A stretch of 32,000 bases of DNA from Pyrobaculum aerophilum str. IM2 (GTDB lineage: Archaea; Thermoproteota; Thermoprotei; Thermoproteales; Thermoproteaceae): the NCBI RefSeq assembly GCF_000007225.1, contig NC_003364.1:1410001-1442000 (forward strand), read 5' to 3'. The translations under genes and the position numbers were made by a program. Position 1 is the first letter of the stretch; every line of letters starts with the position of its first letter. Below, in pieces: positions 14,026 to 29,729 of this stretch. Below the pieces are notes generated by a model. The model had not been told where the DNA came from. It worked only from the letters and a program-made list of their open reading frames with translations, and did no database searches.

Positions 14026-14044
14026 CGTGGGATAAAGGACTACG

Positions 14045-14139
14045 GGGCCGGTAGTCTAGCGGAAGGATGCCCGCCTTGCAAGGCGTTACATACCTAAGAG
14101 CGCGGGTGATCCCGGGTTCGAATCCCGGCCGGTCCACCA
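14045..14139 (+). tRNA. tRNA-Ala (anticodon TGC) with a 20-nt intron (14081-14100) at canonical position 37/38; CCA encoded
   Basis: Acceptor GGGCCGG/CCGGTCC gives the G3:U70 alanine identity pair. The anticodon stem CCCGC/GCGGG closes only if 14081-14100 is removed, leaving loop CTTGCAC. T arm CCGGG-TTCGAAT-CCCGG. Confidence 0.85.
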
Positions 14140-14331
14140 CTTTCCTGCCCCTCATGGAGATAGTAATGACTTGCCGCCGTCAACGTTTCTCCTGATATCA
14201 CGGGGTTCCTCGGGGAGTAAAAAGCATGGGAGCAGTAAAAGGCCTGGGGGTTTCTGAGGGTGGGCTAGAACCTGTGTCCAACGGTGCGCATAGCACTTAT
14301 AGGGCTTTTAACACGCTTAATGAGTTTTTAA

Positions 14332-15018: not shown

Positions 15019-15022
15019 CGCC

Positions 15023-15619: not shown

Positions 15620-15911
15620 TAAAAACACTCTTAATTTTCTGAAAAATATTGAAGCTAGATGCCGTAATGAGGCCTTTTATAGAAATTATAAAGATATATG
15701 TATAGCCACAAAAATAGCCTTGTCAAACATTAAGGGGAGTGGCGTTAAGTTGAGAACTACGCTGGTGAGGCTGGCCGACCCGTCTGATAAAATTGTGGCC
15801 TCAAAGGTATTGAATTTTTTAAAGAGGGAGGTTGGGAGTATTACAGACAGCGAGAGGTTAAAATTGGCGGCGGCCCGCTACGTATATAAAAAAGTCTTGG
15901 CGTTAATATGA
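15612..15911 (+). CDS. Hypothetical small protein (visibly more A/T-rich than its neighbours)
   Basis: The ORF is bracketed by overlapping start/stop junctions on both sides (8 nt and 4 nt). No recognised motif. Confidence 0.45.
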   Translation: MFDKNTLNFLKNIEARCRNEAFYRNYKDICIATKIALSNIKGSGVKLRTTLVRLADPSDKIVASKVLNFLKREVGSITDSERLKLAAARYVYKKVLALI

Positions 15912-16612
15912 GGGGGGTGAAGACAGTGATAGTGACTTCTCTAGACGGCGGAGTTGGAAAGACAACAATAGCCTCTGTGCTTGCCGTGAAGAAGGGATTT
16001 ACGTTATTAGTGGATATGGACTGGGAGAAGGCCGATTTGTCACAATTATTCAGAGTTCCTAAAAAGCCAGGCTGGGTTGCCCCCTACTTAAAAGGCGGTA
16101 TGCCGTATGTCCACAGAGTATCGCCTCTGTTGTACGTAATGCCGGGGTACGAGGCATACGAGCTTTATCAGAGGTTTGGCGACGACGTAGTGGGGGATTT
16201 CGAAGAGGCCGTGTTGGAGTGGGCGGAGAACATGCCTAAATTCGTGGCGAAATTAAGAATACCGGTGGATACCGTAATTATTGACACAACCGCTGCGCTA
16301 AGAGTGGAGGTGCTTTCCAAGTTGCAACAGCTAGGCACGTATAATATTTTTATGGCCGACCGCCGCCTTATTTCCCGCATATCTGACATCAAGGCGGAGC
16401 AGTACCGCCGCTACATGGCCTACTCCTCCTTAGTGGTGGTAAACCAGTTAGAAAAGGACGAGATGAAAATCGCCAGGAAAATCACCCCCGTGGCGATTAA
16501 GCGCGTTGCCATTAGGGATTACTACGGCGAGAGTATTGCCAATTCAATACTGCGAGACCGCGAAAACCGCAAGTCCATTGACCACATTCTCACTCGCATT
16601 AAGTCTGTATGA
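15908..16612 (+). CDS. MinD/ParA-class (SIMIBI) P-loop ATPase with atypical Walker A (DGGVGKTT)
   Basis: VIVTSLDGGVGKTTIASVLA is a deviant Walker A without the signature Lys. LLVDMD is the Walker A' / switch I-like motif. VIIDTTA is the Walker B. An ATGA overlap links it to the following secretion ATPase gene. Confidence 0.7.
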   Translation: MRGVKTVIVTSLDGGVGKTTIASVLAVKKGFTLLVDMDWEKADLSQLFRVPKKPGWVAPYLKGGMPYVHRVSPLLYVMPGYEAYELYQRFGDDVVGDFEEAVLEWAENMPKFVAKLRIPVDTVIIDTTAALRVEVLSKLQQLGTYNIFMADRRLISRISDIKAEQYRRYMAYSSLVVVNQLEKDEMKIARKITPVAIKRVAIRDYYGESIANSILRDRENRKSIDHILTRIKSV

Positions 16613-18141
16613 TATACGCCCACGCCGACAACTCGCTGAGGAGCCGCTGTTGGCTCAAAAAAGAGGGCGTCATTGTGGACAGGGGGGTTCGCACAGACCT
16701 CTGCATTACTGAGGACCTCATGTACGTAGTCATTGACCCCGAGCTGCCGGACGACCTCCAGACGGCCTTAACGCTCATAATGTTCCGCGGGGCCGTGCCC
16801 CCGGACGAGAGGGAGTACCCCAAGCTGGTGAGGTCTGTGGCCGAGGGCCTCCGCGACCGCGGAATTTGGTCTTTGTACAAAGACTATCAGGACGTCGTCC
16901 ACTACCTCCTCGACAGGTGGTCCGGCGCGAGGGAGTACATGGGCTACGGGGCGCTGGAGGCCATGATGAGAGACCCCATGTTGACGGAAATAGTAATCCC
17001 CCAGCCGGCGGCCCCCGCCGCCAAGTACACCTACGTTCCCAAATCGCTCAAAGAGCAACTGGACTACATAAGATTCCAAATGGTGGAGCTAGGGCGATAC
17101 CGCCGTGTTATCGCCGTGAGGAATGAACTACGGCTCCCCACTAACATCGTCATCCCAGAGCCGTTGATGTACGTAGTAGTGAAACAGTTACTGCCCTCTC
17201 TCACTATGGACAAGCCCATGCTCACCAGAGAAGACCCGGTGAATAAGGCGAGAATAGCCGCTGATTTATTGGAGTATAACGTCAACATCAGGAAGGTGTC
17301 GGCCCATCCAAAACCCTCAAAATCTCTACTAAAGCCATACGTCACAAGGCCTAGGATAGAGGAGGCCGTCAAGGCGGCAGAGCCCTACAGCCCAGAGGGC
17401 CTTGAGGTGTTGGCCCTGGCCTCGCTCGTGTTGGAGACTAGGGGTAGTGTAGTGTTCTCAGGGGGCATGGGCTCTGGCAAGACGACGCAATTAAATCAAC
17501 TTCTCTACATGATGCCTCCTTGGTTTCAAGTAGTAATTATCGAGAGAGGCGCTAGAGAGATGTGGGCGCCTCTTGACGGCCAGCTACTGCACCTCTCAGT
17601 TCCCAGCGAGGACAAGCTGTGGGCAGCGCTTGATCAAGCACTTAGATACGGCACAATGCACACTGTTGTTGCGTTGGCGGAGGCCAGGACGCCGCAAGAG
17701 CTCCGCACTCTAGTGAATTACAAGCTCACTGGCCACGGGGCGCTTACCACTATGCACGCCGATACGGTTAAAGACGCCCTGTTGCGCATAACCGAGGCAG
17801 AGGCGCCTCCCGAGGGCCTAGATGGCACTCTCGTAATTCAGCTATCCGTCGTGGGCGGCATAAGGTACGTAAAGGAGGTAAAGGCCGTAATCGCTGAGGG
17901 CCGGGAGGTTAAAATAGCCGAGCCGTCGGCGGTAACCCCCAAGCTGGAGGCCTACGTGAGGGAGATGTACGGCGTAGACTTGAAAAAGGAGCTGGCGCTG
18001 AGAGTAGAGGCGTTGTTAAAGTCCAGCGAGGTGGAGGACCCCGCCGCGGCGAGGAGGGCTATTGTGGAAATGCTGTGGGGGGAGAGGCTGGACTTCAAAA
18101 CGGCGGTGGAGGAAGAGGCGAGGCACTTCGGCTATGTCTAG
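16609..18141 (+). CDS. Type II/IV secretion-system ATPase superfamily protein (VirB11/PilB/FlaI/TadA class), divergent
   Basis: N-terminal-domain motif GYGALEAMMRDPMLTEIVI. Walker A FSGGMGSGKTTQL. Asp-box position VVIIERGAREM. Walker B TVVALAEARTPQE. His box LTGHGALTTMHADTVKDALLRI. Confidence 0.8.
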   Translation: MIYAHADNSLRSRCWLKKEGVIVDRGVRTDLCITEDLMYVVIDPELPDDLQTALTLIMFRGAVPPDEREYPKLVRSVAEGLRDRGIWSLYKDYQDVVHYLLDRWSGAREYMGYGALEAMMRDPMLTEIVIPQPAAPAAKYTYVPKSLKEQLDYIRFQMVELGRYRRVIAVRNELRLPTNIVIPEPLMYVVVKQLLPSLTMDKPMLTREDPVNKARIAADLLEYNVNIRKVSAHPKPSKSLLKPYVTRPRIEEAVKAAEPYSPEGLEVLALASLVLETRGSVVFSGGMGSGKTTQLNQLLYMMPPWFQVVIIERGAREMWAPLDGQLLHLSVPSEDKLWAALDQALRYGTMHTVVALAEARTPQELRTLVNYKLTGHGALTTMHADTVKDALLRITEAEAPPEGLDGTLVIQLSVVGGIRYVKEVKAVIAEGREVKIAEPSAVTPKLEAYVREMYGVDLKKELALRVEALLKSSEVEDPAAARRAIVEMLWGERLDFKTAVEEEARHFGYV

Positions 18142-18144
18142 GCA

Positions 18145-18157
18145 AAAGTTTTTCCCC
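18145..18157 (+). promoter_or_regulatory. Cluster motif copy 1 (variant AAAGTTTTTCCCC), 32 nt before ATG 18177
   Basis: Read directly. It starts 4 nt after the ATPase stop codon. The T5 run is centred 26 nt upstream of the ATG. Confidence 0.6.
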
Positions 18158-18176
18158 TCCCCGAGGGAATAGGGCC

Positions 18177-18503
18177 ATGGTGTTGAAAAAGAAAATCCTC
18201 AGCGCGATATTAGAGGAGGCAGATAACGGCGGATTTCAACCAGTGCCCCAGTCGCCTCACTCAATTCAGGAATCTGTCGAGCCGGCAGCGGCGCCCCAGC
18301 CGGTACAGCCGGTAATTACGGCAGGGCCCCAGGCCTCCGGCTGGCAGTACCACTTAGCCGCCGCCATTACGCAAATGCCTGAGGAAATGGCGACTAAATT
18401 GCTCAGCTGTCTGCCTAAAGACTTCATTATTGAAATGTTGAAAAGCCGCTCTAACGACCCGTTGATGAAACTGGCGTTGCTCCTTCTCCAGAGAAATGTG
18501 TAG
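18177..18503 (+). CDS. Hypothetical small soluble protein (Pro/Gln-rich linker, helical C-terminus)
   Basis: I chose the internal ATG at 18177 of track ORF 18075-18503 because it lies 32 nt after the motif. The upstream extension overlaps the ATPase gene. Confidence 0.5.
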   Translation: MVLKKKILSAILEEADNGGFQPVPQSPHSIQESVEPAAAPQPVQPVITAGPQASGWQYHLAAAITQMPEEMATKLLSCLPKDFIIEMLKSRSNDPLMKLALLLLQRNV

Positions 18504-18834
18504 AGTAGAAAAGGCGGCTGTCAGAAAAGGCCTCACAGCCTCTACTGCCAGGTGGCTGTGCGAGCTTGCGAAAGAGCTGAACGTAAAGGAGAAGAAATTG
18601 CTCAAAGCCGTATTAAAACTCGCCAAACACGGCGTTTGGCTAGAGGCTGAGGACTGGCGCCTGGCATCGCGGCTGGTAGATCTCAACAAATACATGGACA
18701 TGGTCGTGGACTATATCATACGCAGAGTTGCCTCGGGCGCCTCCGTCGTGCAAGCAGTTAGAGAGCTCCCCAAGGCCGTGGAGAGGGCGGGGAAGCTCGC
18801 CCACGTGAAAGAAGTGCTGTCAAACTTAGTGTAG
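18496..18834 (+). CDS. Hypothetical helical protein
   Basis: ORF overlapping the upstream gene by 8 nt. The sequence is Lys/Leu/Ala-rich and helical-looking. No recognised motif. Confidence 0.5.
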   Translation: MCRVEKAAVRKGLTASTARWLCELAKELNVKEKKLLKAVLKLAKHGVWLEAEDWRLASRLVDLNKYMDMVVDYIIRRVASGASVVQAVRELPKAVERAGKLAHVKEVLSNLV

Positions 18835-18849
18835 CGACGTTCCAAACTC

Positions 18850-18862
18850 AAGGTTTTTCCCC
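18850..18862 (+). promoter_or_regulatory. Cluster motif copy 2 (AAGGTTTTTCCCC), 31 nt before ATG 18881
   Basis: Read directly. The extended 20-mer AAACTCAAGGTTTTTCCCCT (18844-18863) is identical to copy 5. Confidence 0.65.
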
Positions 18863-18880
18863 TATCCCCCTCCCCTCTCC

Positions 18881-20077
18881 ATGCGGGAGGATTTCTACAT
18901 AACGGCAGCTCCCATCTTCGCCACGTACCTCGGTGTAACCTCGGGCAATGAGGCGCTTAAATATACGGCGTTAAACACCGCCGAGTTAAACGAGGTTGAA
19001 TCTCGGCGCCTTTTCGTGGCGTCGTTAATGCCCACCCCCTCTGCCGTATTTCTAGAGGACAAGAGTGAGGTAGTTAGACAATACGGCTACGCCTTGGCGC
19101 AAGAGGAGGCAGGCGTGGACAGAGCCATAGTGGTACACTCCTTTCTAGAATCAACGAGGGCAGTGGCGGTGTCTAAAACCGAGGCCAAAACGAAGCTATA
19201 CGAATCTCTCACAAACGCAATGGGAGCCCTATTCCTACTCCCCCTCTTTTTATTGTTCCTATGGGCGGTGGGAGTGCTGGCAGTAGATCCCGCGCTCCTC
19301 ATCGCGTTAATTTTCGGCGTCACCGCGGCAGTGGGGGCCGTGGCCGTGGCCTCTACGCCGCGGGATCTCTCCCTCTGGAGGACGTATGAGTGGTCCCTCC
19401 CCGTCGGCCTCGCCGCTGGCGCCCTAGTAGGCCTGCTCGCCTCTCCTCCCGCGGCCTTTCTGGCCTTCGGCCTCACGGCGTTAGGCTGGCTGAAGGCGAG
19501 GGACAGGCTGTGGTGGTTTAGAATTAGGCAGGAGGTCCCGCCGATGCTCAGAGCCGCCGCGGCCATGCTGAAAGAGGGGGCTCCCCCCGATATTATAATC
19601 GCGAGGCTGTCGGGCAGGTTCAGAGTGGCGGCTAAAGTGGCCTACGGCTATTTCATCCCGTCGAGGTATTTCGCCCTGGCCAGGGCTATGTACCGGGCCA
19701 TTGCCGAGGCCGGCGGGGCCTCTGCGGTAAAGGCCGTGGAGTACATCCAGTCTGTCATCGACTTGGAAAACACCGCCGTCAGGAGGACAGTTAAGCTGGC
19801 CGCGGCGTATTTCGCCCTGTTTATAGCCGCGGTGGTGATACTGACTTACTCAGTGGCCACAGCCGTGAAGTCTCTATCGGCGCTGGAGTCTGGATACAAC
19901 CCCTTCTTCACGCCGCCTCCCTACGAGGAGGTGAAGTGGGTGGTGTCAACCGTCATGGCCCTAATAGCCGCCAGCTATATAGCGGTGTTTATATCGGCAG
20001 TGGGAATACACTACTCAGCCACGCTGGGCGGGGCAGTAGGCCTGGCCCTAGAGCGGGCAATACAGCTGTTGCTGTAA
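18881..20077 (+). CDS. Polytopic membrane protein, candidate PilC/TadC/FlaJ-type (T2SSF-like) platform
   Basis: Architecture is a soluble domain of about 110 aa, then a TM cluster, a second soluble helical domain (IRQEVPPMLRAAAAMLKEGAPPDIIIARLS...AIAEAGGASAVKAVEYIQSVI), then a second TM cluster. The second domain resembles the T2SSF repeat pattern. The gene sits between the ATPase and pilin genes. Confidence 0.55.
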   Translation: MREDFYITAAPIFATYLGVTSGNEALKYTALNTAELNEVESRRLFVASLMPTPSAVFLEDKSEVVRQYGYALAQEEAGVDRAIVVHSFLESTRAVAVSKTEAKTKLYESLTNAMGALFLLPLFLLFLWAVGVLAVDPALLIALIFGVTAAVGAVAVASTPRDLSLWRTYEWSLPVGLAAGALVGLLASPPAAFLAFGLTALGWLKARDRLWWFRIRQEVPPMLRAAAAMLKEGAPPDIIIARLSGRFRVAAKVAYGYFIPSRYFALARAMYRAIAEAGGASAVKAVEYIQSVIDLENTAVRRTVKLAAAYFALFIAAVVILTYSVATAVKSLSALESGYNPFFTPPPYEEVKWVVSTVMALIAASYIAVFISAVGIHYSATLGGAVGLALERAIQLLL

Positions 20078-20098
20078 TTCTCCTTTTTCAGGGAGGGC

Positions 20099-20111
20099 AA
20101 GGTTTTTCCCC
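20099..20111 (+). promoter_or_regulatory. Cluster motif copy 3 (AAGGTTTTTCCCC), 32 nt before ATG 20131
   Basis: Read directly. Confidence 0.65.
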
Positions 20112-20130
20112 TCTCCCAAACAAAGGGGAC

Positions 20131-20604
20131 ATGAACCAAAAAACGAGAAGAAAACTAAGAGGCCTGACTACAGTGGAGGCGTTGTTAATAGCCGCCGGCT
20201 TTATAATAGTGGGAGTGATCGGGGCGCTTACATTCCAGCAAATTGGAAAGTCCGCCTCTGAGGCTCTAAGGGCAAACGCCATAGTCACGGCGGATAGGGG
20301 CGGCCTTGACGTTACTGTGGAAGTGCTCAACGGGAAGCTCACCGCTATAGCTCTCAGGTATGGAGAAAGCGGCGGGCAATTAAACGACGCTCGGTTACAA
20401 GGCTGTTGGAGAGCCACCGCAAGTGGTATTACGCCTGGTACACCGTCTTCACGGAATCCCGTAGTGGCCGGGCAGTCCATAACTTGCAGGTTCACTGCCT
20501 CTCTGCAGTCTGGGAGGCAGTACGTCTACGTTATACTGGCAGGCGACGAGAGCGGCAAGACCGTCCAAATCGCCAAGGGAGTAGTCACAGTTGGCATATC
20601 GTAA
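20131..20604 (+). CDS. Prepilin-like protein with class III (type IV pilin) signal peptide
   Basis: The internal ATG of track ORF 19936-20604 gives MNQKTRRKLRG|LTTVEALLIAAGFIIVGVIGALTF. This is a basic leader, Arg-Gly at -2/-1, Glu at +5 and a roughly 20-aa hydrophobic helix. A Gly/Thr/Val-rich, beta-looking domain with 2 Cys follows. Confidence 0.65.
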   Translation: MNQKTRRKLRGLTTVEALLIAAGFIIVGVIGALTFQQIGKSASEALRANAIVTADRGGLDVTVEVLNGKLTAIALRYGESGGQLNDARLQGCWRATASGITPGTPSSRNPVVAGQSITCRFTASLQSGRQYVYVILAGDESGKTVQIAKGVVTVGIS

Positions 20605-20630
20605 ACGCCCAAAAACCCCCCACTTTTTTC

Positions 20631-20643
20631 AAGGTTTTTCCCC
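20631..20643 (+). promoter_or_regulatory. Cluster motif copy 4 (AAGGTTTTTCCCC[C]), 32 nt before ATG 20663
   Basis: Read directly. The spacer down to the ATG is almost pure pyrimidine. Confidence 0.65.
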
Positions 20644-20662
20644 CTCTCTTCTTCCCTTTCTT

Positions 20663-21643
20663 ATGAAGTTGCTAGGGATAATTGCGTTGGTAACACTGGT
20701 CGCGGCCGTATTTGGTCAAATCGTCAGCTGGGTTCCGCCGCACGCCCAGCTGGTGGGCGCGTATGTGTACAACGCCACTCACTTCGCGTATTACAAAGAT
20801 GGCGCGGCTGTATACATCGCGCAGGAGGGCCTTACCTTCAACGGGACTGATGCAGAGGCCCAGGCCGTTATGCAATTTCTCTACTCCCAGTGTAAATACG
20901 TAGCCGTCGAGGTGGAAAACATCACCGTTATTGACGGCGGAGAGCTCTGGCCCTCAGAGGTGTACTGCTCTCAAGACGGCTCCTCCTGGCTCTGGCTGAG
21001 GCTATTGCCCTTAAGATTCGCCGCGTATAAAGGCGATGTTGATTTTGTAAACGCCTCAATAACAGTATACACGCCAATTGGAGTATTTACTGGATACGTC
21101 CCCGCCGGCTGGTATCTAGACAGAGGCACAAACACTGTATTCCGCCTCCCGGGCTTCAACGCCTCTCTAATAACGGAGATACACAAGTTGCAGAGGGCAA
21201 TAACACAGCTGACAGCCCAGCTACAAGCCGTCAGCGCCAACAACAGCCAGCTGTCAGCGCTATTAACACAGCTAAGCGCAAAGGCGAATGAGCTGGAGTC
21301 CCAGCGCAAGGCGCTGGAAGAGGCCGTGAGGCAGAGGGAGAGCGTAATATCCGCCCTCAGCGCCCAGCTACAAGCGGCTAGGGCCGAGGCAGATGCCCTT
21401 AGAAAACAACTGGAGGAGGCCAGGAGAGAAAACGAGGCTCTGAGGGCGAGGCTGGCCGAAATAAACGCCACTTACACTGACATGATTCAACAACTACAGG
21501 CGCAACTAGATCAACTAAGCCAAATGCAACTACAAGCCCAGCCTGATGAGGGCGGCCCCAATCTACTCCCCCTACTGTTTATCGCGCTTATAGCAATAGT
21601 CGGCGCCCTAGTGTACATTAGGAAGAAGAGGGCGGAGGAGTAA
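20663..21643 (+). CDS. Bitopic coiled-coil protein: N-terminal hydrophobic helix, globular domain, about 120-aa Gln/Ala/Leu/Glu coiled coil, C-terminal TM anchor
   Basis: The internal ATG of track ORF 20591-21643 gives MKLLGIIALVTLVAAVFGQ. There is a heptad-like stretch (ITQLTAQLQAVSANNSQLSALLTQLSAKANELESQRKALEEAV...). The C-terminus is LLPLLFIALIAIVGALVYIRKKRAEE. Several N-x-S/T sequons are present. Confidence 0.6.
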   Translation: MKLLGIIALVTLVAAVFGQIVSWVPPHAQLVGAYVYNATHFAYYKDGAAVYIAQEGLTFNGTDAEAQAVMQFLYSQCKYVAVEVENITVIDGGELWPSEVYCSQDGSSWLWLRLLPLRFAAYKGDVDFVNASITVYTPIGVFTGYVPAGWYLDRGTNTVFRLPGFNASLITEIHKLQRAITQLTAQLQAVSANNSQLSALLTQLSAKANELESQRKALEEAVRQRESVISALSAQLQAARAEADALRKQLEEARRENEALRARLAEINATYTDMIQQLQAQLDQLSQMQLQAQPDEGGPNLLPLLFIALIAIVGALVYIRKKRAEE

Positions 21644-21661
21644 ACGGGGAAAGGGAAACTC

Positions 21662-21674
21662 AAGGTTTTTCCCC
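21662..21674 (+). promoter_or_regulatory. Cluster motif copy 5 (AAGGTTTTTCCCC), 31 nt before ATG 21693
   Basis: Read directly. The 20-mer at 21656-21675 is identical to copy 2. Confidence 0.65.
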
Positions 21675-21692
21675 TCCCCTTCCCCCTCTTTC

Positions 21693-21860
21693 ATGCTCCT
21701 GCTCCTAAGGAAATTGCTAGAGGGGCCTTTAACGCTAGAGGAATTTATGAGAGAGGTGTCTAAACTGGGGGAGAGGGATAGGGAGGTAGTCTGGTGGTAC
21801 GTGCGGGTTGTTGACGGCAGAGTAATGCTCAGGGGGTCGGGGCTATGGAGGATTTCATAG
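21693..21860 (+). CDS. 55-aa ORF not in the ORF track (MLLLLRKLLEGPLTLEEFMREVSKLGERDREVVWWYVRVVDGRVMLRGSGLWRIS)
   Basis: Own translation. It is the only ATG at the canonical 31-nt distance from motif copy 5. It overlaps the next ORF by 16 nt. Confidence 0.4.
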   Translation: MLLLLRKLLEGPLTLEEFMREVSKLGERDREVVWWYVRVVDGRVMLRGSGLWRIS

Positions 21861-22288
21861 CCGCCGCCGTATTTATTACAGCTTTGACGGCCTTGTTCAC
21901 ACTGACGGCTTTAGTGCTAAAGCCCTACATGCCCACCGCCTACGTAGAGGCGCCTGTGCAACCGGGCGAGAATACGCCAACTAGGACAATTTACGTCTAC
22001 GCGTACACGGCCGGCGGCGCCGAGAGGTACTACCTAGTGGAATACGTAGGCCCAGACGTAGAGGCGTTTAGGCGGTTTCTGGGAGTGCCGGGCGTGCTGG
22101 CGGCTAAGTTTGAGGTGTACCCGGGTGGCTACCGCTGTGAGTTATACAGAGAAAAGCCCGTTAAAATCGGCGATCCCTACACCGGCTTTTGGTGCCCGCC
22201 TCCCTTTGACGCCCGCGTTGACCCGCGTTGCGTGCCTATTGGCGTTATCTCTAGGGGGAGGTGGTTGTTAGTGCAGTACAAATGCTGA
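21845..22288 (+). CDS. Hypothetical protein with N-terminal hydrophobic helix (candidate minor pilin-like/anchored protein)
   Basis: MEDFIAAAVFITALTALFTLTALVLKP, followed by a Cys-containing soluble domain. Confidence 0.5.
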   Translation: MEDFIAAAVFITALTALFTLTALVLKPYMPTAYVEAPVQPGENTPTRTIYVYAYTAGGAERYYLVEYVGPDVEAFRRFLGVPGVLAAKFEVYPGGYRCELYREKPVKIGDPYTGFWCPPPFDARVDPRCVPIGVISRGRWLLVQYKC

Positions 22289-22292
22289 GGAT

Positions 22293-23390
22293 ATGTACGC
22301 AGTGAGAGATCTCGTGTTATTCGCCGCCTTAACCGCTATGGCCGTAGCCGTAATTGCGTCTTTATTCCCAGTGCGGGAGGGGCCCGCGGAAGTGCCGGTG
22401 TGCTCAGACTGCGCCTTTAAGCTAGTAGGCCCTTATGTCGTGAAACAATACGACAGCTACGCCGCAATACAGCTTGGCGGTAGGCAATTGGCGAGATACG
22501 GCTGGGCATATGTAAACGGCATGCCGCTATTGCCGGGGGAAAACGCCACGTGCCCAACGGCCATGTATCTGTGGGTTGCGGCTGGGAATCTTTACGTGTC
22601 TTGCGACGGCGCTCCCCCCAAGTTCGGGAGGTTTATCGCCGGGCGTCCCACGCTTGTAATAGACACTCTCGGCTTTTGTGACAGCGGGTGCGTCTACGTT
22701 ACGGCCGCAGACGGCTGGGGGGAGGTTGCGCTACCCGTAACTTTTGAATACGGCGCTTTGCATTATCTGAAGACAACCCCCTTCTGGTTCTGCATTAGCG
22801 GGTATCCCGCCCCTCCCTCAGACGGCGTGTATTACTTCGCGGCGCATTTCCCGGGCAACTCCTCTATACCTCCTCTGTGGGCAGAGGCCATGATTACGGT
22901 GAGCACAAAGCTGGTCATAGGCGGTCAGAACTACGTCATGTTGCAGAGTAGCGACTCCTCAGATCTCCGCCCCACGGCGTTGAAGGTCTACAACTTATCG
23001 GCCTACTGGGCTAAAGGGCAGTCCACAGCTAGGATATACGTCAACCGCCACAGATATTTCGACGTTGATAATAAGGGGGCCTTGCTGGACTTTCTACTGG
23101 CATGGGAGGACTGCCTCAGATGCGGCTCTTCAAGCTCTGCAGATCTCTACGTAGACGAGGTGTGGCGCCTTTGGCACGACGGCAGATGGCATTTACAGAG
23201 GCTAAATTCACAAGGCGGCTTTTGGCATGAGGTGCGCCTAAACGGCACATTGATATGGGTATACAACGCCCGCGGCCCGAAAATGAGTTACTTGGAGTGG
23301 TCTGGGACTCTCGCCAGAGTGCAGTTCGCCTCGCGGGACAGCGGTATGAACGCCGTCTTTGAGGTAAAGTTCGAGAGGGTCTGTAGATAG
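22293..23390 (+). CDS. Hypothetical Cys-rich exported protein with N-terminal hydrophobic helix
   Basis: MYAVRDLVLFAALTAMAVAVIASLF. Multiple Cys (CSDC, CPT...SCDG, FCDSGC, CLRC) and N-x-S/T sequons. Confidence 0.55.
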   Translation: MYAVRDLVLFAALTAMAVAVIASLFPVREGPAEVPVCSDCAFKLVGPYVVKQYDSYAAIQLGGRQLARYGWAYVNGMPLLPGENATCPTAMYLWVAAGNLYVSCDGAPPKFGRFIAGRPTLVIDTLGFCDSGCVYVTAADGWGEVALPVTFEYGALHYLKTTPFWFCISGYPAPPSDGVYYFAAHFPGNSSIPPLWAEAMITVSTKLVIGGQNYVMLQSSDSSDLRPTALKVYNLSAYWAKGQSTARIYVNRHRYFDVDNKGALLDFLLAWEDCLRCGSSSSADLYVDEVWRLWHDGRWHLQRLNSQGGFWHEVRLNGTLIWVYNARGPKMSYLEWSGTLARVQFASRDSGMNAVFEVKFERVCR

Positions 23391-23391
23391 T

Positions 23392-24150
23392 ATGTGGTCT
23401 CTTGCCTACGGCCTAATAGCCCTCGCCGTTGTTGCTTTCGCCGTCATGTACGCAGCCCTCCACTTCTCAAAGCCTATTTCTATAAATCTGGCGGAGGATC
23501 TCTATAACGCCAAGAGAAAGGCCCTTGACGTGTTTTACACAGACTCCCTGGCTGTTTTTAGGCGCAACTCCGGCGTTGCGTATTACGTGAGGGTGAACGT
23601 CACGGCATACGACCCGGCTACAAAGAAATACGTGGAATTCCCATTGGGAATGCCAGTGGCCTATAGGCTACAGGGAGAGGCCTCCTACTACATATACTCC
23701 TTGGCGTTAAACGCCACGTGCCTCCTGTCTGCGGCTAAGGCGTATGGAAAGCCCGCTGTGTTGTACGAAGTGGAGGTGTACTATCCACTGGACCCAGCCC
23801 CGTGGCTTGAGGTATACGCCGTAGTGCCTAAATACGACAACTGGACATCGTACCTATACCCAGCCGCTGGGAGGAGCCTGATCCTCACCACAGACCTAGT
23901 GGACTGGAATTTTGGATTTCTCTTCGACGCGGTGAAGGCCGAGTGGGCCTTTATAAACAACGGGACCCGCGCAGTGCTCTACGCCCTTGTGCCTAAAGCC
24001 GCTGTGGGCGTATTAGTGGTGGACTACCCCGCCAAGGCCTTTATTACATGCGGGAGGCTATTCGCACAGCAAGAGGGGGAGGAGGGCAGAGAGGGGGAGA
24101 GAGGCGGCGGGGACAACGGCCCTACTCAGTACATACAGCCGGAGAAATGA
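23392..24150 (+). CDS. Hypothetical protein with N-terminal hydrophobic helix and acidic Gly/Glu-rich C-terminus
   Basis: MWSLAYGLIALAVVAFAVMYAAL. The tail is QQEGEEGREGERGGGDNG. Its stop codon overlaps motif copy 6. Confidence 0.55.
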   Translation: MWSLAYGLIALAVVAFAVMYAALHFSKPISINLAEDLYNAKRKALDVFYTDSLAVFRRNSGVAYYVRVNVTAYDPATKKYVEFPLGMPVAYRLQGEASYYIYSLALNATCLLSAAKAYGKPAVLYEVEVYYPLDPAPWLEVYAVVPKYDNWTSYLYPAAGRSLILTTDLVDWNFGFLFDAVKAEWAFINNGTRAVLYALVPKAAVGVLVVDYPAKAFITCGRLFAQQEGEEGREGERGGGDNGPTQYIQPEK

Positions 24151-24162
24151 AGGTTTTTCCCC
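24150..24162 (+). promoter_or_regulatory. Cluster motif copy 6 (AAGGTTTTTCCCC), 32 nt before ATG 24182
   Basis: Read directly. The first A is the last base of the upstream TGA stop. Confidence 0.65.
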
Positions 24163-24181
24163 TTGCCTCTAGGCGAGAGCC

Positions 24182-27100
24182 ATGAGGCTGATATTGTTTG
24201 CCCTGATACTAACAATGTTAGTAACTGCCGGCGTTAAGCTGGAATCCGTCCAGATAGAAAAACTTGGCAACTACACCTATTCAAACGTAGTTGAAGCCGC
24301 CGTGTCCTTCTCCATGGGCACCGCGGCGCCGCTGGGAGTTGGGAAAGGCGTCGGGGGCGCGAGCTGGAAGCCCTCAGACGCTCCCACGACGGAGGTCTGG
24401 GGCGTTAGGGGGGTTAACACAACTGTGGCCGCTTGGTGGAGTTATGCACAAGGCGCAAAGTGGGAGGGGGACTTGCGCTTTTCAGTCACTCTAGAATACT
24501 ACGATTCCAACGGTGTATGGAGCATCACTAAGTACTTCGTAAACAAGACCTACTGTGAGTACGACGACGCCACAGGGGCCAAGCTATACTGCTGGAATAA
24601 TTATTACGTCTACCACGTGGTGGAGGGGGAGCCCAGCCGCGTCTCCACGACGGTGACTTTCACAGTGCCTAGCGATAGGGCCAGGTACTCGGCGAGCCAG
24701 AGCCTTAAGGTGAATAAGCCGCCCCAGCCCTTTACCCGTTGGGTTTACATAAAGGGTGTTATCGCGCGAGAGAGCGGCTACTGCTCTTCCATAGACAGCT
24801 GGGGAGACTGCCAGCAGTATACGCCAAAGGAAGACAAAGTGGTGAGAGGCTCCTCACCCGGCGTCTGGCGGGCTTTGGAAATAGACGGCTATAAGCCGGG
24901 AGATGTGGTGAGAATTGGCGGCGCCAACGCCACTATTCCAGACCCTTGGCTCTACACAGACTGGCCGTTGTTAGACCTGGCCCCCAGTCTGGGCGTTAGC
25001 ACTGACATAGATGGGGTATTGCGCCCGTTGAGAGGAGGGCTTGATATTCCCTTCGACCGGCGCGTTTACATCACTGGCGACGTTTCGCCTACAGACTGGG
25101 GCACCGTGGAAATTAGGCCTCCCCGGGACGCTCCTCTGTACATCTCCAGAGTGGTGTTTATAGGCGACGTGTCTAAATGCCGGTTCCCAGACTGTATAAT
25201 AATACACACAGTGGGCAATTCCACTTGGGTTGGGGATAGGTGGGTTTGGAGAGACACCATGGCCTCCCTCGCGTTTAAAACTCCTTTTACGCTGAGGCCT
25301 TATTTAATAACGCGAGTGGGCGGCGCCGCCAATCCCTACCAAGTCATAGGGGATCCCCTTGTCACTTTAATCAGCAGAGAAGCGTATGTATACGTCCCCT
25401 ACGGCAGCGTTGGGCAACTGTGGGTTGAGGTGAAGTGGATGCTAGACTTGGCGGGGAGGAGGGTCTGGGTAGGCGATAGGGGGACTGCCCTTAGGGCTGT
25501 GGACGACAGAGGCCGGCTGTTAGACTACGAAACGGCGGGGGCCAGGGGGAAGCTGGCGTATTACAAGCCGGGGTATAACGCCCCTATCGCGGGGTTTTCC
25601 TTTGGCATAGACGCGGGCTTTGGGCGGTTAACAACCGCCTTCTACTCCCCGCCGGATCCGTGCCGCCAGTGGCCTACACAGATTTTCCACTGCGTTTACT
25701 CACAACACGTCTTCACGAAGGTAAACGGCACGTGGGTCGGCTACGCCAGGGTGGGCCCCCGGGGAGGGCCGCAGTGGCCTATAACTAGGCTGAGGCTGGT
25801 GGACTGGCTAATTGGCTCTGATCCCTACGTGTCAGTAAGGGGGTATTTCTTAGACTTCATGAGCGCCGTTGTGGGAGACCCCCACCTTCTCTACCACCAC
25901 TACTACAGGTTGGAGTGCTGGGCCTTCAACCCGCAGACGGGGGATTTCGACATACCTGACATGTGCCCCGTGCCGGGGCCTCACCAAGTCTCGTTGCTGG
26001 GCCGGGTGTACGGAATTTCGCAATACCTCAACACAACAAGGGGCTGGAGCCGGCTTTACCACCAGACGGCCATGCCGAGAGGCCTCACTTTTTATAATTA
26101 CGCCTTTGGGAAATACGGCGGCGGTACGGAGCTACCGGCCGGCTGGACAGACGCCCTTCCCCTCGGAGTGTCTAGTATGATTCCCAACGGGCCGTCGCCA
26201 TGGTTTGTCTTCCTGGCCCCGGCCACTGCCTGCGACGGCACTATATGTACGTCTACAGACGTGAGAGTGTGGGGGCCTGTGCCCGGTCCTCTTGCCGATT
26301 TAGCCCTCCCCGGCGCTGGATACGCCTTTGTCCTCATATACATGGGAAATGTCACTAAGGCCTCAGTGAGGGTGTACGTGGAGAAGGGGCTATTGGTAAA
26401 CGCCTCTATGGGCGTTAGGGAGGCCAATTGGGATCTCCTCGTGGAAATACCAGAGAGGGAGTGGAGGCCCCTCGACGTAGTATACCTGGGGTACGGGTGG
26501 TACAGGCTGGCCGGCGCCCTCGGCCCCTGTCAGTCGTTGCGCGTCGGCCGCGTTGGCTACTACGCCGCGCCGGTAGATTGGGTCGGGCCTGTCCAGCTCA
26601 AAATAACAGACGGAAAGGGCTCCCACCACTTCGCCTTCCTCGTGGCTCCGCCTGAGCTCACGGCGTTGAAAATTGGGGGTAGGACAGAGGCGCCTGCTAG
26701 GGCAAACGGGTGGCAACTTAATTTATCCGCCTATCTCTATGTCAACGGCGTGCCTTACTTCCACGGCTTCACGCCGTTCGGCGAGGGGGGAAGGCAGTAT
26801 GAGAGGAAGTGCGTAGCGGCCAGCCTCCCGGCTCCCCGCACCTCTCTCCTTGGAGAGGCGGACGCCGCCTCTCAGCTGGCCGCAAGCGGAGACTTCTGGG
26901 GCCTTGTGGAGATGTACGCCAGAGCGAGGCTGGAGGGCGCCGTTGTTGAGCCCAAGTTCGAGCTAGTGGACCCCGATGGGGGTCTGGTGAATATCACGGC
27001 GGAAGGCCCCGTCAAGGGCTTTGCCTTTTACTTACAGCGCGGCGGCGTATGGGTGAAGGTGACTGAGGTGAACGGCACGTGGGCTTTGGTGGACGTCTCC

Positions 27101-27280
27101 AGAGTATTCCCCTGGGATCCCGTAGCGGTAGTCCCCATTGTGGAGTTCGAGGCCTATGTCCGAAACGGGGGCGTTGTCACAGTGTGGCGGCCGAGGCCTT
27201 CGCTGTTATTCAAGGCCTGGGCCGACGGCCTGGGCTATCCCGACGGCCAGAGCGAGTTGCGCATAGTGGCCTATGGATAG
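24182..27280 (+). CDS. Giant (1032 aa) exported protein, N-terminal hydrophobic helix, Trp/Tyr/Gly/Val-rich, many N-x-S/T sequons
   Basis: MRLILFALILTMLVTAGVKLES. It is one uninterrupted ORF with no further obvious TM segment. No family recognised. Confidence 0.65.
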   Translation: MRLILFALILTMLVTAGVKLESVQIEKLGNYTYSNVVEAAVSFSMGTAAPLGVGKGVGGASWKPSDAPTTEVWGVRGVNTTVAAWWSYAQGAKWEGDLRFSVTLEYYDSNGVWSITKYFVNKTYCEYDDATGAKLYCWNNYYVYHVVEGEPSRVSTTVTFTVPSDRARYSASQSLKVNKPPQPFTRWVYIKGVIARESGYCSSIDSWGDCQQYTPKEDKVVRGSSPGVWRALEIDGYKPGDVVRIGGANATIPDPWLYTDWPLLDLAPSLGVSTDIDGVLRPLRGGLDIPFDRRVYITGDVSPTDWGTVEIRPPRDAPLYISRVVFIGDVSKCRFPDCIIIHTVGNSTWVGDRWVWRDTMASLAFKTPFTLRPYLITRVGGAANPYQVIGDPLVTLISREAYVYVPYGSVGQLWVEVKWMLDLAGRRVWVGDRGTALRAVDDRGRLLDYETAGARGKLAYYKPGYNAPIAGFSFGIDAGFGRLTTAFYSPPDPCRQWPTQIFHCVYSQHVFTKVNGTWVGYARVGPRGGPQWPITRLRLVDWLIGSDPYVSVRGYFLDFMSAVVGDPHLLYHHYYRLECWAFNPQTGDFDIPDMCPVPGPHQVSLLGRVYGISQYLNTTRGWSRLYHQTAMPRGLTFYNYAFGKYGGGTELPAGWTDALPLGVSSMIPNGPSPWFVFLAPATACDGTICTSTDVRVWGPVPGPLADLALPGAGYAFVLIYMGNVTKASVRVYVEKGLLVNASMGVREANWDLLVEIPEREWRPLDVVYLGYGWYRLAGALGPCQSLRVGRVGYYAAPVDWVGPVQLKITDGKGSHHFAFLVAPPELTALKIGGRTEAPARANGWQLNLSAYLYVNGVPYFHGFTPFGEGGRQYERKCVAASLPAPRTSLLGEADAASQLAASGDFWGLVEMYARARLEGAVVEPKFELVDPDGGLVNITAEGPVKGFAFYLQRGGVWVKVTEVNGTWALVDVSRVFPWDPVAVVPIVEFEAYVRNGGVVTVWRPRPSLLFKAWADGLGYPDGQSELRIVAYG

Positions 27281-27785
27281 TCTCAAGGCCGTTTTGACGA
27301 CAGCGGCCGCCGTGGCGTTGACTCTAGTGGTGGCAGTGGCTGTGACCAACGCGTTGCAAAGCGCAAATCCAGTTGTTAAATCAATAGCATTAGCCGTAGC
27401 TGGGGAGTCCAAGGCAAAGGCGGAGACGCCACTGTCCGTAGTAAAATACGGAGTGTACTACGTCTACGAGGGCGGCGGATGGGCTTTGTCCGCCGCTCCC
27501 TCAGCCGTTTCTACGCCGCAGCTCTACGCCGTGGGCTTCGGCAACTGCCCTGCCGACATTTCGGGGCTATACGGAAGGGCATATGCGCCGGGGAGCAATG
27601 TAGTACACGTAACGGGCTGTTCCATCGTAGTGCCCTCCATCGCCAAGGAGGACGGGGCTGTGGCAATTACCCACTACCTCCCCATGTGCGTTTCAGGAAC
27701 TGATTTTAGAACCGAAACTGTTGGACAGTACTTCACTTACAAGGGAGTGCGGTTTAGAGTGAGGCTGGTGATAATCCGCTGTTAA
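27273..27785 (+). CDS. Second prepilin-like candidate
   Basis: MDSLKA|VLTTAAAVALTLVVAVAVTNAL has Lys-Ala at -2/-1 and an LTT-containing hydrophobic helix, reminiscent of the 20131 protein. It overlaps the giant gene by 8 nt. Confidence 0.5.
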   Translation: MDSLKAVLTTAAAVALTLVVAVAVTNALQSANPVVKSIALAVAGESKAKAETPLSVVKYGVYYVYEGGGWALSAAPSAVSTPQLYAVGFGNCPADISGLYGRAYAPGSNVVHVTGCSIVVPSIAKEDGAVAITHYLPMCVSGTDFRTETVGQYFTYKGVRFRVRLVIIRC

Positions 27786-27791
27786 AAACCC

Positions 27792-27830
27792 GCTTTTTTC
27801 CTCTCTTTCCATTCTTCTTCTCTAATCCCC
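27792..27830 (+). promoter_or_regulatory. Degenerate motif-like element (GCTTTTTTCCTCTCTTTCC...) with no ATG at the canonical distance; possible oligo-T terminator or decayed promoter
   Basis: A T6 run at 27795-27800 is followed by a C/T-rich tract resembling the spacer of copy 4. No start codon lies 25-35 nt downstream. Confidence 0.3.
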
Positions 27831-27950
27831 CTATTCTCTTCACTTCTACGTCACCTTAAACCCCGTATTTCCAGGCGTGTCCCAATAAGACGTCGTGCTT
27901 CTGGGCACGTTTAGACAGAACATAGCCTTCAGCGCCGTTTCAAATGCCGT

Positions 27951-27963
27951 AAGGTTTTTCCCC
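27951..27963 (+). promoter_or_regulatory. Cluster motif copy 7 (AAGGTTTTTCCCC), 31 nt before ATG 27982
   Basis: Read directly. Confidence 0.65.
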
Positions 27964-27981
27964 AGCCACTGCCACACGGCC

Positions 27982-28248
27982 ATGAGACTGGAGCTGGCCT
28001 TGATACCGGTTATATTCGGAATGGCAGTAGCCGTCTTAATAGCGGTGAAGCCGCTGGAGGTCAACAAGCCGGACTTGTCCGCGTTGTTCCTCTACTGGCC
28101 TGAGGCTTATAAATACGCGGAGAGGGGCGACGCGATGTTTATACGCGGCGTTGTGCCGTTCGTGACGTGCGCCTCTAGCGGTATCGTCGAGGCGCCTCCC
28201 GGCCTGGCCTACAAGGCGCTCGGCCTCACCTGCCGGTTTAGGCCATGA
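27982..28248 (+). CDS. Small protein with N-terminal hydrophobic helix
   Basis: The internal ATG of track ORF 27895-28248 gives MRLELALIPVIFGMAVAVLIAVKP. I chose this start because of the motif spacing. Confidence 0.5.
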   Translation: MRLELALIPVIFGMAVAVLIAVKPLEVNKPDLSALFLYWPEAYKYAERGDAMFIRGVVPFVTCASSGIVEAPPGLAYKALGLTCRFRP

Positions 28249-28538
28249 TTGAGGAGTACATAGAGCTAGCCGCCGTCACGGCGCTGGCGGTAATTGCCAT
28301 TACAGCCTTCGCCTACATATTCGCCTACATCACAACGCCAGCAGCCTGCCAAGCCGTTAGGCTCGCGGCGGAAAACCCAGGCAGCGAGCTGGTGGCGTAC
28401 GGAAGGCTGAGAGTAATTACAAACGACACGCATGTATCTCTATGCGGCATTACTATTGAAAAGGACAAAATCTTAATATATAGAACTGAAGGATATCTAT
28501 TCATTGTAAGCGATAATTATAAAATATATATTAAATAA
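28245..28538 (+). CDS. Small protein with N-terminal hydrophobic helix; 3' third is strikingly A/T-rich
   Basis: MIEEYIELAAVTALAVIAITAFAYIFAYITT. It overlaps the previous gene by 4 nt. Composition changes from about 28440 onward. Confidence 0.45.
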   Translation: MIEEYIELAAVTALAVIAITAFAYIFAYITTPAACQAVRLAAENPGSELVAYGRLRVITNDTHVSLCGITIEKDKILIYRTEGYLFIVSDNYKIYIK

Positions 28539-28592
28539 ATATTAAAATTTTTTATGAATTAAGGCCAGTTTCCTCGCGATGCCGTTGCAAAT

Positions 28593-29729
28593 TTATAGGA
28601 AGTCAGTAATGGGCTTTGCCTCGTCCTTTAGTAAATATAGGGGGTTGGCCCCCACTTTATCAACATATTTCTTGAATTCCTCGTCTAAGGGTTTAAAAGA
28701 GACTCTCCTAAGCGTTTCCCTTATTTGCCAGTTTCCCACTGATATGTAATAACCCTCGCCAATGCTCCTCACAATGGCGACAGAGCCCCGCCTCCTCAAT
28801 GCATAGAGTTTTTCCAAAACTGCCACTCTAGCCGCCTCGTATCCCCCGTCCATAGTGCTACGCTCTCCTCTAACGTCTTCCTTAACTAAAACTTCTACCA
28901 GCTTGCCTCTCCAATGCCAGCGTTCTAAATAGACAAATCTTAGAGGGCCGGGCTTTATCAGGACTAAATATTTATTATCTAGATACTCCCCGTAGGCATA
29001 AACAGCTGAATTAATTTCGGGGAAGTATCTAACCTTAGAGGCTAGCCAATCGCCTACAGCCGTATCCACTGCAGTTATACTCCACCGGGATGGCACTAGT
29101 CGGCGTCTGTGCTTAACGCCAATGAGCCCAAGGGCAAAAGCCCTTTGAATAGTGTATATATCAACTCCCCTGGCATAGAGCTCCACAGCCGCTTCGCTGG
29201 CAGTTAAATTATCGCTGATTAATTTCTCAAGGGGTTTAGGCACAGAGGGATTATCAACTACTCTTGCCTTTTCTAATGGCGCGGTGGGGCCCAGCGGCTT
29301 CTCCCTTAAATCAAATACTAACCGCGGGGCTGGGGGCTTTGACAGTTTAATCTCTAAGTCAACGGGCCTTGTTGAAACGGCCGCTAGAGGCAACTCCCCC
29401 AGTTCCCAAGGCGTCTTTGCTGTTTTCACGCCAAAGGTTAAATAACTGCGTAGTTTTGCTATTTCCTCAAGCGGCAGGCCCCATAAAGCGCTGGGATCGT
29501 CGTATTTCTTGGCATCGTCGCCAAAGACATCAGGCGGTTCCCCCACGTAGATTCTGACCTTTGGCCACCCGTGCTCTCCCACAACAGCAGTAGGAGGCGT
29601 TGACCCAAATATCTCAAGCCTTGACGCCTTGCTCAACGCCAGCTTGAATACTGAAATTCTATCAGCTATGGGGCATCTCGGAAGGCCGCATAACAACTTG
29701 CGCACCTGGCACTTAAGACAAATGCTCAT
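28593..29729 (-). CDS. Nre-family (archaeal DNA repair-associated) protein, tentative
   Basis: The N-terminal Cys cluster MSICLKCQVRKLLCGLPRCP and the length of about 380 aa match my recollection of the archaeal Nre N-terminal/C-terminal domain family. This is not verifiable here. Confidence 0.45.
   Translation of the reverse strand: MSICLKCQVRKLLCGLPRCPIADRISVFKLALSKASRLEIFGSTPPTAVVGEHGWPKVRIYVGEPPDVFGDDAKKYDDPSALWGLPLEEIAKLRSYLTFGVKTAKTPWELGELPLAAVSTRPVDLEIKLSKPPAPRLVFDLREKPLGPTAPLEKARVVDNPSVPKPLEKLISDNLTASEAAVELYARGVDIYTIQRAFALGLIGVKHRRRLVPSRWSITAVDTAVGDWLASKVRYFPEINSAVYAYGEYLDNKYLVLIKPGPLRFVYLERWHWRGKLVEVLVKEDVRGERSTMDGGYEAARVAVLEKLYALRRRGSVAIVRSIGEGYYISVGNWQIRETLRRVSFKPLDEEFKKYVDKVGANPLYLLKDEAKPITDFL

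Follow-up and report, generated by a model that had tools for sequence, protein, structure and literature searches.

We describe a 13-nt motif, AAGGTTTTTCCCC, that occurs in seven copies in a 32,000-nt stretch of the Pyrobaculum aerophilum str. IM2 genome (contig NC_003364.1, positions 1,410,001 to 1,442,000; hereafter the window). All copies lie 31 or 32 nt ahead of an ATG start codon within the gene cluster 14332-28538 which, judging from a gene content that fits the published description, is the type IV pilus-like system 4G. We consider it probable that each copy is a core promoter and drives its own leaderless unit of this cluster. If so, the motif would represent a class of archaeal core promoter that is specific to one locus and only half canonical.

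The cluster comprises 18 genes in one orientation. It begins with three proteins, g1-g3, followed by a MinD/ParA-like P-loop protein, an ATPase of the T2SSE family and two small helical cytoplasmic proteins (g6 and g7). The ATPase shows 99% identity to a protein listed by NCBI for P. aerophilum, and identical contigs are present in several public assemblies. Downstream of g7 are a polytopic membrane protein of 398 aa, a pilin (RG|LTTVE) and a coiled-coil protein with a C-terminal anchor, and the rest of the cluster encodes several proteins with pilin-like hydrophobic N-termini and a secreted protein of 1032 aa.

The motif and its register

To locate the motif, the window was searched on both strands with the 13-mer AAGGTTTTTCCCC allowing up to 2 mismatches, using 100 dinucleotide-preserving shuffles as a control. 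Six exact copies (18850, 20099, 20631, 21662, 24150, and 27951) and one variant, AAAGTTTTTCCCC (18145), were found, all on the + strand. With up to 2 mismatches the window contained 9 matches, against 1.28 +/- 1.27 in the shuffles (shuffle maximum 5). In copies 1 to 7, the ATG follows the first A at 32, 31, 32, 32, 31, 32, and 31 nt, respectively, and each of these ATGs (18177, 18881, 20131, 20663, 21693, 24182, and 27982) opens an open reading frame (ORF); the random expectation of an ATG at +31/32 is approximately 0.03 per site. The run of five T's (T5) is centred 25-26 nt ahead of the ATG in all 7 sites. Copies 2 and 5 have the 20-mer AAACTCAAGGTTTTTCCCCT in common, and the spacers between motif and ATG in copies 2, 4, and 5 are nearly all C/T. 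Six copies start -1 to 26 nt from the upstream stop codon and the seventh at 165 nt, and in 6 of the 7 the T5 run starts 4-31 nt past that stop. The only further window matches, two sites with 1 mismatch, are on the - strand, one antisense within a Usp gene (7168) and one within a split transporter gene of the major facilitator superfamily (MFS; 7895). Together with near-matches at 5976 (-) and at 15187 (-) of the Pyrobaculum ferrireducens locus L011, these were rejected as motif sites because none has an in-frame start in register. A first-pass annotation of the window had noted the positions, the fixed spacing, the shared 20-mer, the near-pure C/T spacers, the six copies shortly after a stop codon and, by eye, the absence of the motif elsewhere in the window, and these features were reproduced here. 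The pattern is real and highly non-random.

We then compared the motif with canonical archaeal promoters, which combine a TFB recognition element (BRE) with a TATA box. In an alignment with six tRNA promoters, the AA of the motif falls on the A-run of the BRE and its T-run on the leading T's of the TATA box. The T-run starts at -28/-29 in tRNA-Gln (gAAAAccTTTTAAAAc) and tRNA-Ala (cAAAAAGTTTAAAAAg) as well as in the motif (cAAGGTTTTTCCCC or cAAGGTTTTTCCCCt). The left half of the motif (AA..TTTT) matches the tRNA BRE/TATA base for base, whereas the right half reads CCCC where the tRNA promoters have AAAA. AAGG or AAAG is also found ahead of ordinary TATA boxes, as in tRNA-Ala, upstream of g1 in P. 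ferrireducens (AAGGTGTTTAAAAT) and in the 6213 region of the Pyrobaculum oguniense locus L262. The latter locus contains an intermediate form, AAAGGTTTTTAAGC, 33 nt before a gene start, and a TTTAT-type sequence, AAGGTTTATCC, is present in two P. oguniense slots and in one slot of the metagenomic locus L012. Altogether, the motif resembles canonical leaderless promoters in its A-rich BRE remnant (the purine-rich BRE is represented by a near-invariant AA at -32/-31), in a T-run that begins about 28 nt before the start and places the box at approximately 26 nt when the ATG is taken as the transcription start, in what may be an initiator-like pyrimidine-purine pair at -1/+1, and in a start codon that lies at the predicted transcription start. 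It differs from them in that its 3' half is CC(C/A)C (consensus TTTTTCC(C/A)C) rather than the A/T-rich half with TpA steps of a TTTAWA-type box, and in that the 13-mer is near-invariant within a genome and confined to one cluster. TTTAWAAA-type boxes do occupy the equivalent position ahead of the four tRNAs and several flanking genes of the window, as had been proposed. The description of the motif as a non-canonical equivalent of BRE and TATA can therefore be kept as far as the promoter-like register is concerned, which is that of the tRNA boxes, but it has to be narrowed because the left half is canonical and the departure from the norm is limited to the 3' half, CC(C/A)C. A conserved element just 3' of the TATA box is also known from eukaryotes as the downstream BRE (BREd), and by inference from TFIIB-DNA contacts such an element could be readable by the core domain of TFIIB/TFB; its sequence, RTDKKKK, is different from the CCCC of the motif. 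We know of no established BREd consensus in archaea. A scan for bacterial-type promoters and terminators, which is irrelevant in an archaeon, returned only the T-runs.

Conservation in Pyrobaculum and confinement to the 4G cluster

For comparison we used the orthologous loci of P. ferrireducens (L011), P. neutrophilum (L162), P. oguniense (L262), Pyrobaculum sp. WP30 (L044), and four Pyrobaculum populations sampled as metagenomes (L012-L015), and the orthologous motif slots of the window and six of these loci (L011, L162, and L012-L015) were compiled. The sequence AAnnTTTTTC is present on the coding strand in 35 of these 36 slots; in the remaining one, ahead of g6 in L012, TTTAT replaces the T-run. 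The first A lies 31 nt (n = 15), 32 nt (n = 16), 33 nt (n = 3), or 34 nt (n = 1) from the start codon, so that the 31-32 nt spacing for which the first-pass annotation had suggested searching related genomes was found in 31 of the 35 anchored sites. The T-run is centred as in the window copies in 34 of the 35, and the distance from the stop codon to the motif, unlike that to the start, is variable. When the sites are aligned on the ATG, the information content is 1-1.8 bits at -32/-31 (AA), -27 to -24 (T), and -23 to -21 (C), near zero upstream of the motif, and about 0.1-0.3 bits in the spacer. The base at -1 is C in 29 of the 36 sites, with the A of the ATG at +1. The spacer contains 42% C and 65% pyrimidine compared with 25% and 52% further upstream. 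Positions 3-4 (GG) differ between species, while AA, T5, and CC are constant, and none of the 36 slots has an A/T-rich right half. The motif was also found in Pyrobaculum sp. WP30 and in P. oguniense; in the eight loci outside the window, AAnnTTTTTCC precedes the orthologous genes by 31-33 nt. In P. neutrophilum, the AA is often provided by the upstream TAA stop, which packs stop, promoter and start into approximately 30 nt. The encoded proteins are 40-85% identical across these loci (74-85% for the ATPase and 41-52% for the adhesin-like 1032-aa protein). The motif has thus been kept while both proteins and spacers diverged, which indicates that it is under selection.

Two 4G clusters from Thermoproteus, L161 and L261, whose ATPases are 54-55% identical to that of the window, consist of overlapping genes in which the motif was not found. 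The absence from both makes the motif an innovation of Pyrobaculum. Several genes of these two clusters instead have (T)ATT(T)CC directly in front of their ATG, and in one case GTTTTTCC. In P. oguniense, six unrelated small genes (6213-9290) take the place of g1-g3, the MinD-like gene has a motif of its own, TAGGTTTTTCCGC, 33 nt before its ATG, and a CopG gene of the ribbon-helix-helix type lies on the opposite strand within the cluster (14978-15220).

To analyze whether the motif is restricted to this locus, we used searches of different reach. With a position weight matrix (PWM) at a threshold of at least 17 bits, approximately 78 kb of DNA from the clusters contained 31 matches, each of which lies on the coding strand in register with a start. 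Approximately 65 kb of flanking Pyrobaculum DNA contained 2, neither of them at a gene start. A strict pattern applied to metagenomes, AAGGTTTTTCCCCYN{15,16}YCATG, which fits 6 of the 13 known exact-motif sites and hence has about half sensitivity, matched 98 stretches. Forty-four of them encode proteins of 4G clusters, all from Pyrobaculum; the remaining 54 look like chance matches, since they either lack an ORF at the right distance or stem from GC-poor or bacterial DNA that is obviously unrelated. The 44 metagenomic 4G loci (200 kb) contain 51 unique AAnnTTTTTC sites, of which 48 are followed at 31-34 nt by an ORF of 50 aa or more, while contig ends truncate the other 3; no AAnnTTTTTC was found elsewhere or on the opposite strand in those 200 kb. 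Scanning genome contigs with AAGGTTTTTCCCCN{18,19}ATG gave at least 120 matches. Among the matches listed, nearly all are chance occurrences in unrelated genomes and the sole Pyrobaculum match is WP30, again in the 4G cluster; these matches do not bear on the rest of the P. aerophilum genome. In viral contigs, the scan returned 25 isolated single matches, none clustered, which is chance level. As far as these scans reach, they support a motif used by the 4G cluster alone, and with it the private promoter code that had been suggested for the locus. A published description of the motif was not found in the searchable literature, and there was no match pairing GGTTTTTCC with Pyrobaculum.

Probable core promoters and alternative roles

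The mRNAs of P. aerophilum are leaderless according to Slupska (2001) as cited in PMC6028130, the archaeal promoter box lies approximately 26 nt from leaderless starts (PMC6028130), and multiple internal promoters have been reported in Pyrobaculum operons (PMC3388794). Taken together with these data, the most economical explanation of the motif would be that its seven copies are core promoters whose mRNAs have the AUG at their 5' end. In addition, the motif keeps a fixed distance to the ATG that follows it, and past the last gene of the cluster there is a plain run of six T's (T6) and no motif, which ties the motif to the downstream gene. We infer from the alignments that transcription starts at the seven ATGs. 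The AA at -32/-31 (usually AAGG) would be the 3' end of the BRE contacted by TFB, the T5 at -28 to -24 would be the 5' half of a TATA box, and CC(C/A)C would stand in place of its A-rich 3' half. C(-1)A(+1) would form the initiator, with the mRNA starting at or within approximately 1 nt of the AUG. The C-rich right half without a TpA step would be a poor site for the TATA-binding protein (TBP) and would make the promoters dependent on a dedicated reader, either a Thermoproteaceae TFB paralogue that reads the downstream-BRE-like CCCC or an activator. Through such a reader, the structural genes of the filament could be switched as a block. Polymerase arriving from upstream would transcribe the T5 as U5, which could attenuate read-through and insulate the units from each other. 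The cluster is accordingly predicted to be transcribed in eight short units, the level of each being set separately. The motif can be used to search for further members of the 4G filament regulon and as a concrete bait for DNA-binding work. It would also correct gene starts: in the window we favour ATG 27982 over the gene-caller GTG 27895, based on the motif and on ortholog lengths of 87-91 aa, and in P. ferrireducens the motif predicts that the pilin starts at the second ATG (6133, not 6121), which fits the L012 ortholog.

Several points weigh against this explanation. A T5 without a TpA step is expected to be poor for TBP, and with only the standard TBP and TFB the promoters may be very weak. 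A search of cluster proteins (g1-g3, g7, and the 55-aa ORF that follows copy 5) gave no reader. Thermoproteus runs an orthologous cluster without the motif. Degenerate copies of the motif may exist elsewhere, as the metagenome pattern detects about half of the known sites and the PWM search covered the clusters and their flanks. Finally, the support consists of sequence comparison throughout.

Among the other roles that the motif could have, the one closest to a core promoter is that of an operator. A repressor or activator would bind AAGGTTTTTCCCC over a weak core promoter, and the conservation would reflect this regulator and not TBP/TFB. Archaeal repressors commonly bind over the BRE/TATA region, and CC(C/A)C and the near-identical 13-mers of each genome (6 identical ones in the window) exceed what a TATA box needs; moreover, g7, a conserved small helical protein of the cluster, shows weak signals of a helix-turn-helix (HTH) at residues ~20-50. 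However, the motif has no dyad symmetry, and the variation of GG between species with AA, T5, and CC fixed is a BRE/TATA-like pattern. The g7 model has no significant match to a DNA-binding fold, and g7 is also encoded in the Thermoproteus clusters, which are devoid of the motif. We regard an operator as unlikely, and since it overlaps with the core promoter explanation, both could hold. Archaeal RNA polymerase is known to stop at oligo-T tracts, and an intrinsic oligo-T terminator or insulator between genes, for which the position relative to the next ATG is secondary, would account for the sense-strand runs of five T's shortly past six stops (-1 to 26 nt) and for the intergenic location of 12 of the 20 sense-strand T5+ runs in 14001-28600. 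It would not account for a distance that varies from -1 to 165 nt with respect to the stop but is fixed at 31-32 nt with respect to the ATG, nor for the conserved AA and CC, which are not required for termination. Furthermore, the end of the cluster has the plain T6 without the motif, three junctions carry an extra T5/T6 run upstream of the motif, as though the motif by itself did not terminate, and the depletion of T5 in coding sequence is mild (8 sense T5 runs versus 12 A5 runs). Termination as the primary function is thus very unlikely; as a secondary role, which is the most that we would assign to the T5, it is plausible.

A signal acting at the RNA level, which could be a processing site, a U-tract bound by a protein such as Lsm or a translation re-initiation signal within one polycistronic mRNA, would agree with the fixed distance to the AUG, the U-rich core and the very short intergenic regions. 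The modules formed by motif and spacer, however, do not share a conserved fold (each of the seven gives a different structure, with z-scores between +0.2 and -3.6) and match no Rfam family. The 3' end of 16S rRNA has a CCUCC-like sense, and the spacers, which are CCUCC-like too, have that same sense and are not complementary to it. Besides, the register of the motif equals the BRE/TATA register of tRNA genes, which are untranslated. We consider this role extremely unlikely. Even harder to reconcile with the data is a foreign origin, an option raised in the first-pass annotation, in which the cluster would be an integrated virus or plasmid with its own promoter code. The cluster directly follows a tRNA gene in the window, L011, L015, and L162, most of its proteins are orphans, and its GC content is slightly above that of the flanks. 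Against this, gene order at the locus is shared by all Pyrobaculum examined, the 4G clusters of Thermoproteus are homologous to it, and it is treated in the literature as a chromosomal type IV pilus system (PMC4858521). No integrase domain was detected among the cluster proteins and no repeat of the tRNA 3' end (att) at the far border, and viral contigs gave only the 25 single chance-level matches. These data do not support a foreign origin, which we consider scarcely credible.

If the copies are core promoters, the next question is what reads their right half. The common view of archaeal promoters is that of a single generic BRE/TATA class tuned by regulators that bind nearby, and TBP kinks DNA at TpA steps. 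The T5-CC sequence has no TpA, an A/T-rich right half is absent from the 36 slots, and a generic TATA box would be free to drift from one TTTAWA form to another, which argues that the right half is read by something besides generic TBP. A dedicated reader, either a TFB paralogue or an activator/repressor, is plausible on these comparisons. Multiple TFBs are described in this group of organisms: four TFBs accompany a single TBP in Thermoproteus tenax (PMC3189178), TFB1 and TFB2 (PAE1645 and PAE3329, respectively) are known from Pyrobaculum (PMC3388794), and a lineage-specific TFIIB variant of Pyrobaculum, arCOG05559, is linked to another pilus-type ATPase (PMC4858521). This Pyrobaculum/Thermoproteus-specific arCOG05559, which is in an operon with the pilin-less pilus-type ATPase 4D, is a candidate for the reader. 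The strongest form of this idea, in which the half-TATA class is unusable by the standard TBP and TFB and is read by a dedicated, sigma-like TFB paralogue, seems to us rather unlikely, although not negligibly so; it includes the suggestion that the filament could be the motility or adhesion organelle of P. aerophilum, an organism reported to be motile yet without archaellum genes (PMC10117864).

Within the cluster, g1-g3 were rejected as readers since they match no family and since the P. oguniense locus lacks them but retains the motif. The g7 protein was rejected as well: its all-helical model (predicted local distance difference test, pLDDT, 90.6) has a best fold match in PDB with E = 0.28, and all its HTH signals are sub-threshold. 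The 55-aa ORF gave a single-sequence model (pLDDT 76) with the order helix-helix-helix-strand-strand, a winged-helix-like topology; its PDB matches are all non-significant, though most of them are winged-helix domains.

The situation recalls the regulons of TFB and TBP paralogues, such as those of the Halobacterium TFB/TBP pairs and of Sulfolobus TFB3, with which it shares a lineage that has several TFB paralogues. It shares with these TFB regulons, and by analogy with the bacterial sigma-28 flagellar late promoters, a set of related surface-filament genes with a distinctive common core promoter. It differs from regulons of general transcription factor paralogues in that the signal of the motif has no box of its own but occupies the TATA region and the bases immediately 3' of it, and the link to a TFB is hypothetical here. 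A core promoter that is distinct throughout a cluster, kept over the lifetime of a genus and absent from its sister genus is what a sigma-like division of labour among TFBs would be expected to produce. Such a division has long been discussed, and to our knowledge there is little evidence for it in Crenarchaeota. A dedicated TFB, if true, would amount to a private transcription code for a surface-filament regulon in a crenarchaeon.

Predicted transcription units and surroundings of the cluster

The predicted units and their promoter modules are the following (coordinates of the window, all on the + strand):

14295-18141, + strand: first operon, with g1, g2, g3, the MinD/FleN-like ATPase and the T2SSE-family ATPase; overlapping genes, GTG start, no motif
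18145-18176, + strand: module 1, AAAGTTTTTCCCC (18145-18157) and a 19-nt spacer; ATG 18177; heads the unit 18177-18834 (g6, g7)
18850-18880, + strand: module 2, AAGGTTTTTCCCC and an 18-nt C/T spacer; ATG 18881; heads the TadC-like polytopic platform protein (18881-20077)
20099-20130, + strand: module 3; ATG 20131; heads the PilA-type pilin (20131-20604)
20631-20662, + strand: module 4; ATG 20663; heads the coiled-coil protein with a C-terminal membrane anchor (20663-21643)
21662-21692, + strand: module 5; ATG 21693; heads the 55-aa ORF and three overlapping or abutting pilin-like genes (21845-24150)
24150-24181, + strand: module 6; ATG 24182; heads the 1032-aa adhesin-like protein and a 170-aa gene (24182-27785)
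27951-27981, + strand: module 7; ATG 27982; heads the final two small pilin-like genes (27982-28538)
28548-28553, + strand: T6 run, 10 nt past the last cluster gene, no motif

The first operon is preceded by a T/A box of canonical type, CTTTTAA. Each cluster gene without a motif overlaps or abuts the preceding gene, and from 18141 on each intergenic gap of at least 30 nt holds one motif, from which we derive a cluster made of one operon with a canonical promoter (14332-18141) and seven motif-headed units. The slot orthologous to module 1 has the motif in L011, L015, L162, and L262 and the TTTAT variant in L012. Additional T-runs are found near two modules, a T5 at 20084 just past the stop upstream of module 3 and a T6 at 20624 near module 4, and the first A of module 6 is the final base of the upstream TGA stop. 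The T6 at the end of the cluster is likely a generic oligo-T terminator.

The type IV pilus subsystem 4G of Pyrobaculum and Thermoproteus has been described by Makarova et al. (2016, PMC4858521), who treat it as a chromosomal system, and in a bioRxiv preprint (10.64898/2026.04.22.720090). The window cluster has in common with it a diverged T2SSE ATPase next to a MinD/FleN-like one, two small helical cytoplasmic proteins and many pilin-like proteins, together with putative counterparts of its TadC-like protein, PilA pilin and large adhesin-like protein. The ATPase pair was identified with Pfam through a T2SSE match (PF00437) at 16609-18141 (E = 4.5e-10) and a weak CbiA/ParA-type P-loop match at 15908-16612 (E = 2e-4, below the Pfam cut-off). 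The platform protein, the pilin and the adhesin-like protein have no Pfam matches and were tentatively assigned from features that fit the published description (a polytopic protein of 398 aa, RG|LTTVE, and a secreted protein of 1032 aa); the N-terminus of the pilin would correspond to a class III signal peptide with E at +5. Named homologues of the ATPase and the adhesin are from Pyrobaculum or Thermoproteus, except for one partial match labelled Thermofilum. Neither of the published descriptions treats promoters, the word being absent from PMC4858521, and the motif is an addition to the description of 4G that is limited to the Pyrobaculum branch.

Some further observations concern the cluster itself. 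The 55-aa ORF directly after copy 5 (21693-21860) is seen only in loci of the P. aerophilum type (the window and L204); in L011 and L012 the module 5 motif directly precedes the ortholog of 21845. The 165-nt spacer ahead of copy 7 (27786-27950) is not present in other species. It starts after the stop with AAAAACCCGCTTTTTTCCTCTC, followed by a C/T-rich tract, and looks like a decayed promoter module that was displaced by an insertion. In the 3' end of g1, approximately 17 nt before the g2 ATG (15023), there is an inverted repeat, GTACAA(AA)-N~14-(TT)TTGTAC (14975-15006), whose arms are kept in L011, L012, L015, and L162 although the peptide encoded by the stretch between the arms differs. The repeat might bind a dimeric regulator or form an RNA hairpin that controls g2.

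Other observations were made in the DNA upstream of the cluster. The intron-containing tRNA just before it (14045-14139), to which ARAGORN assigned no type, corresponds in position to tRNA-Ala(TGC) of P. neutrophilum (L162 7648-7722). The cobalamin adenosyltransferase gene (5390-5965, - strand) is relocated and inverted in P. aerophilum compared with P. neutrophilum, L011, and L015. Its annotated GTG start is abutted by AAGGTTTTTCAGT (5964-5976, - strand), which has 10 of the 13 motif bases and, with no in-frame start at 31-32 nt, is probably a chance match. The MFS transporter region (7333-8528, - strand) consists of two overlapping ORFs (7995-8528 and 7333-8064), each matching one half of PF07690, and is probably a frameshifted pseudogene; the neighbouring locus of P. 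neutrophilum (L162 4342-5535) contains an intact MFS gene of 397 aa.

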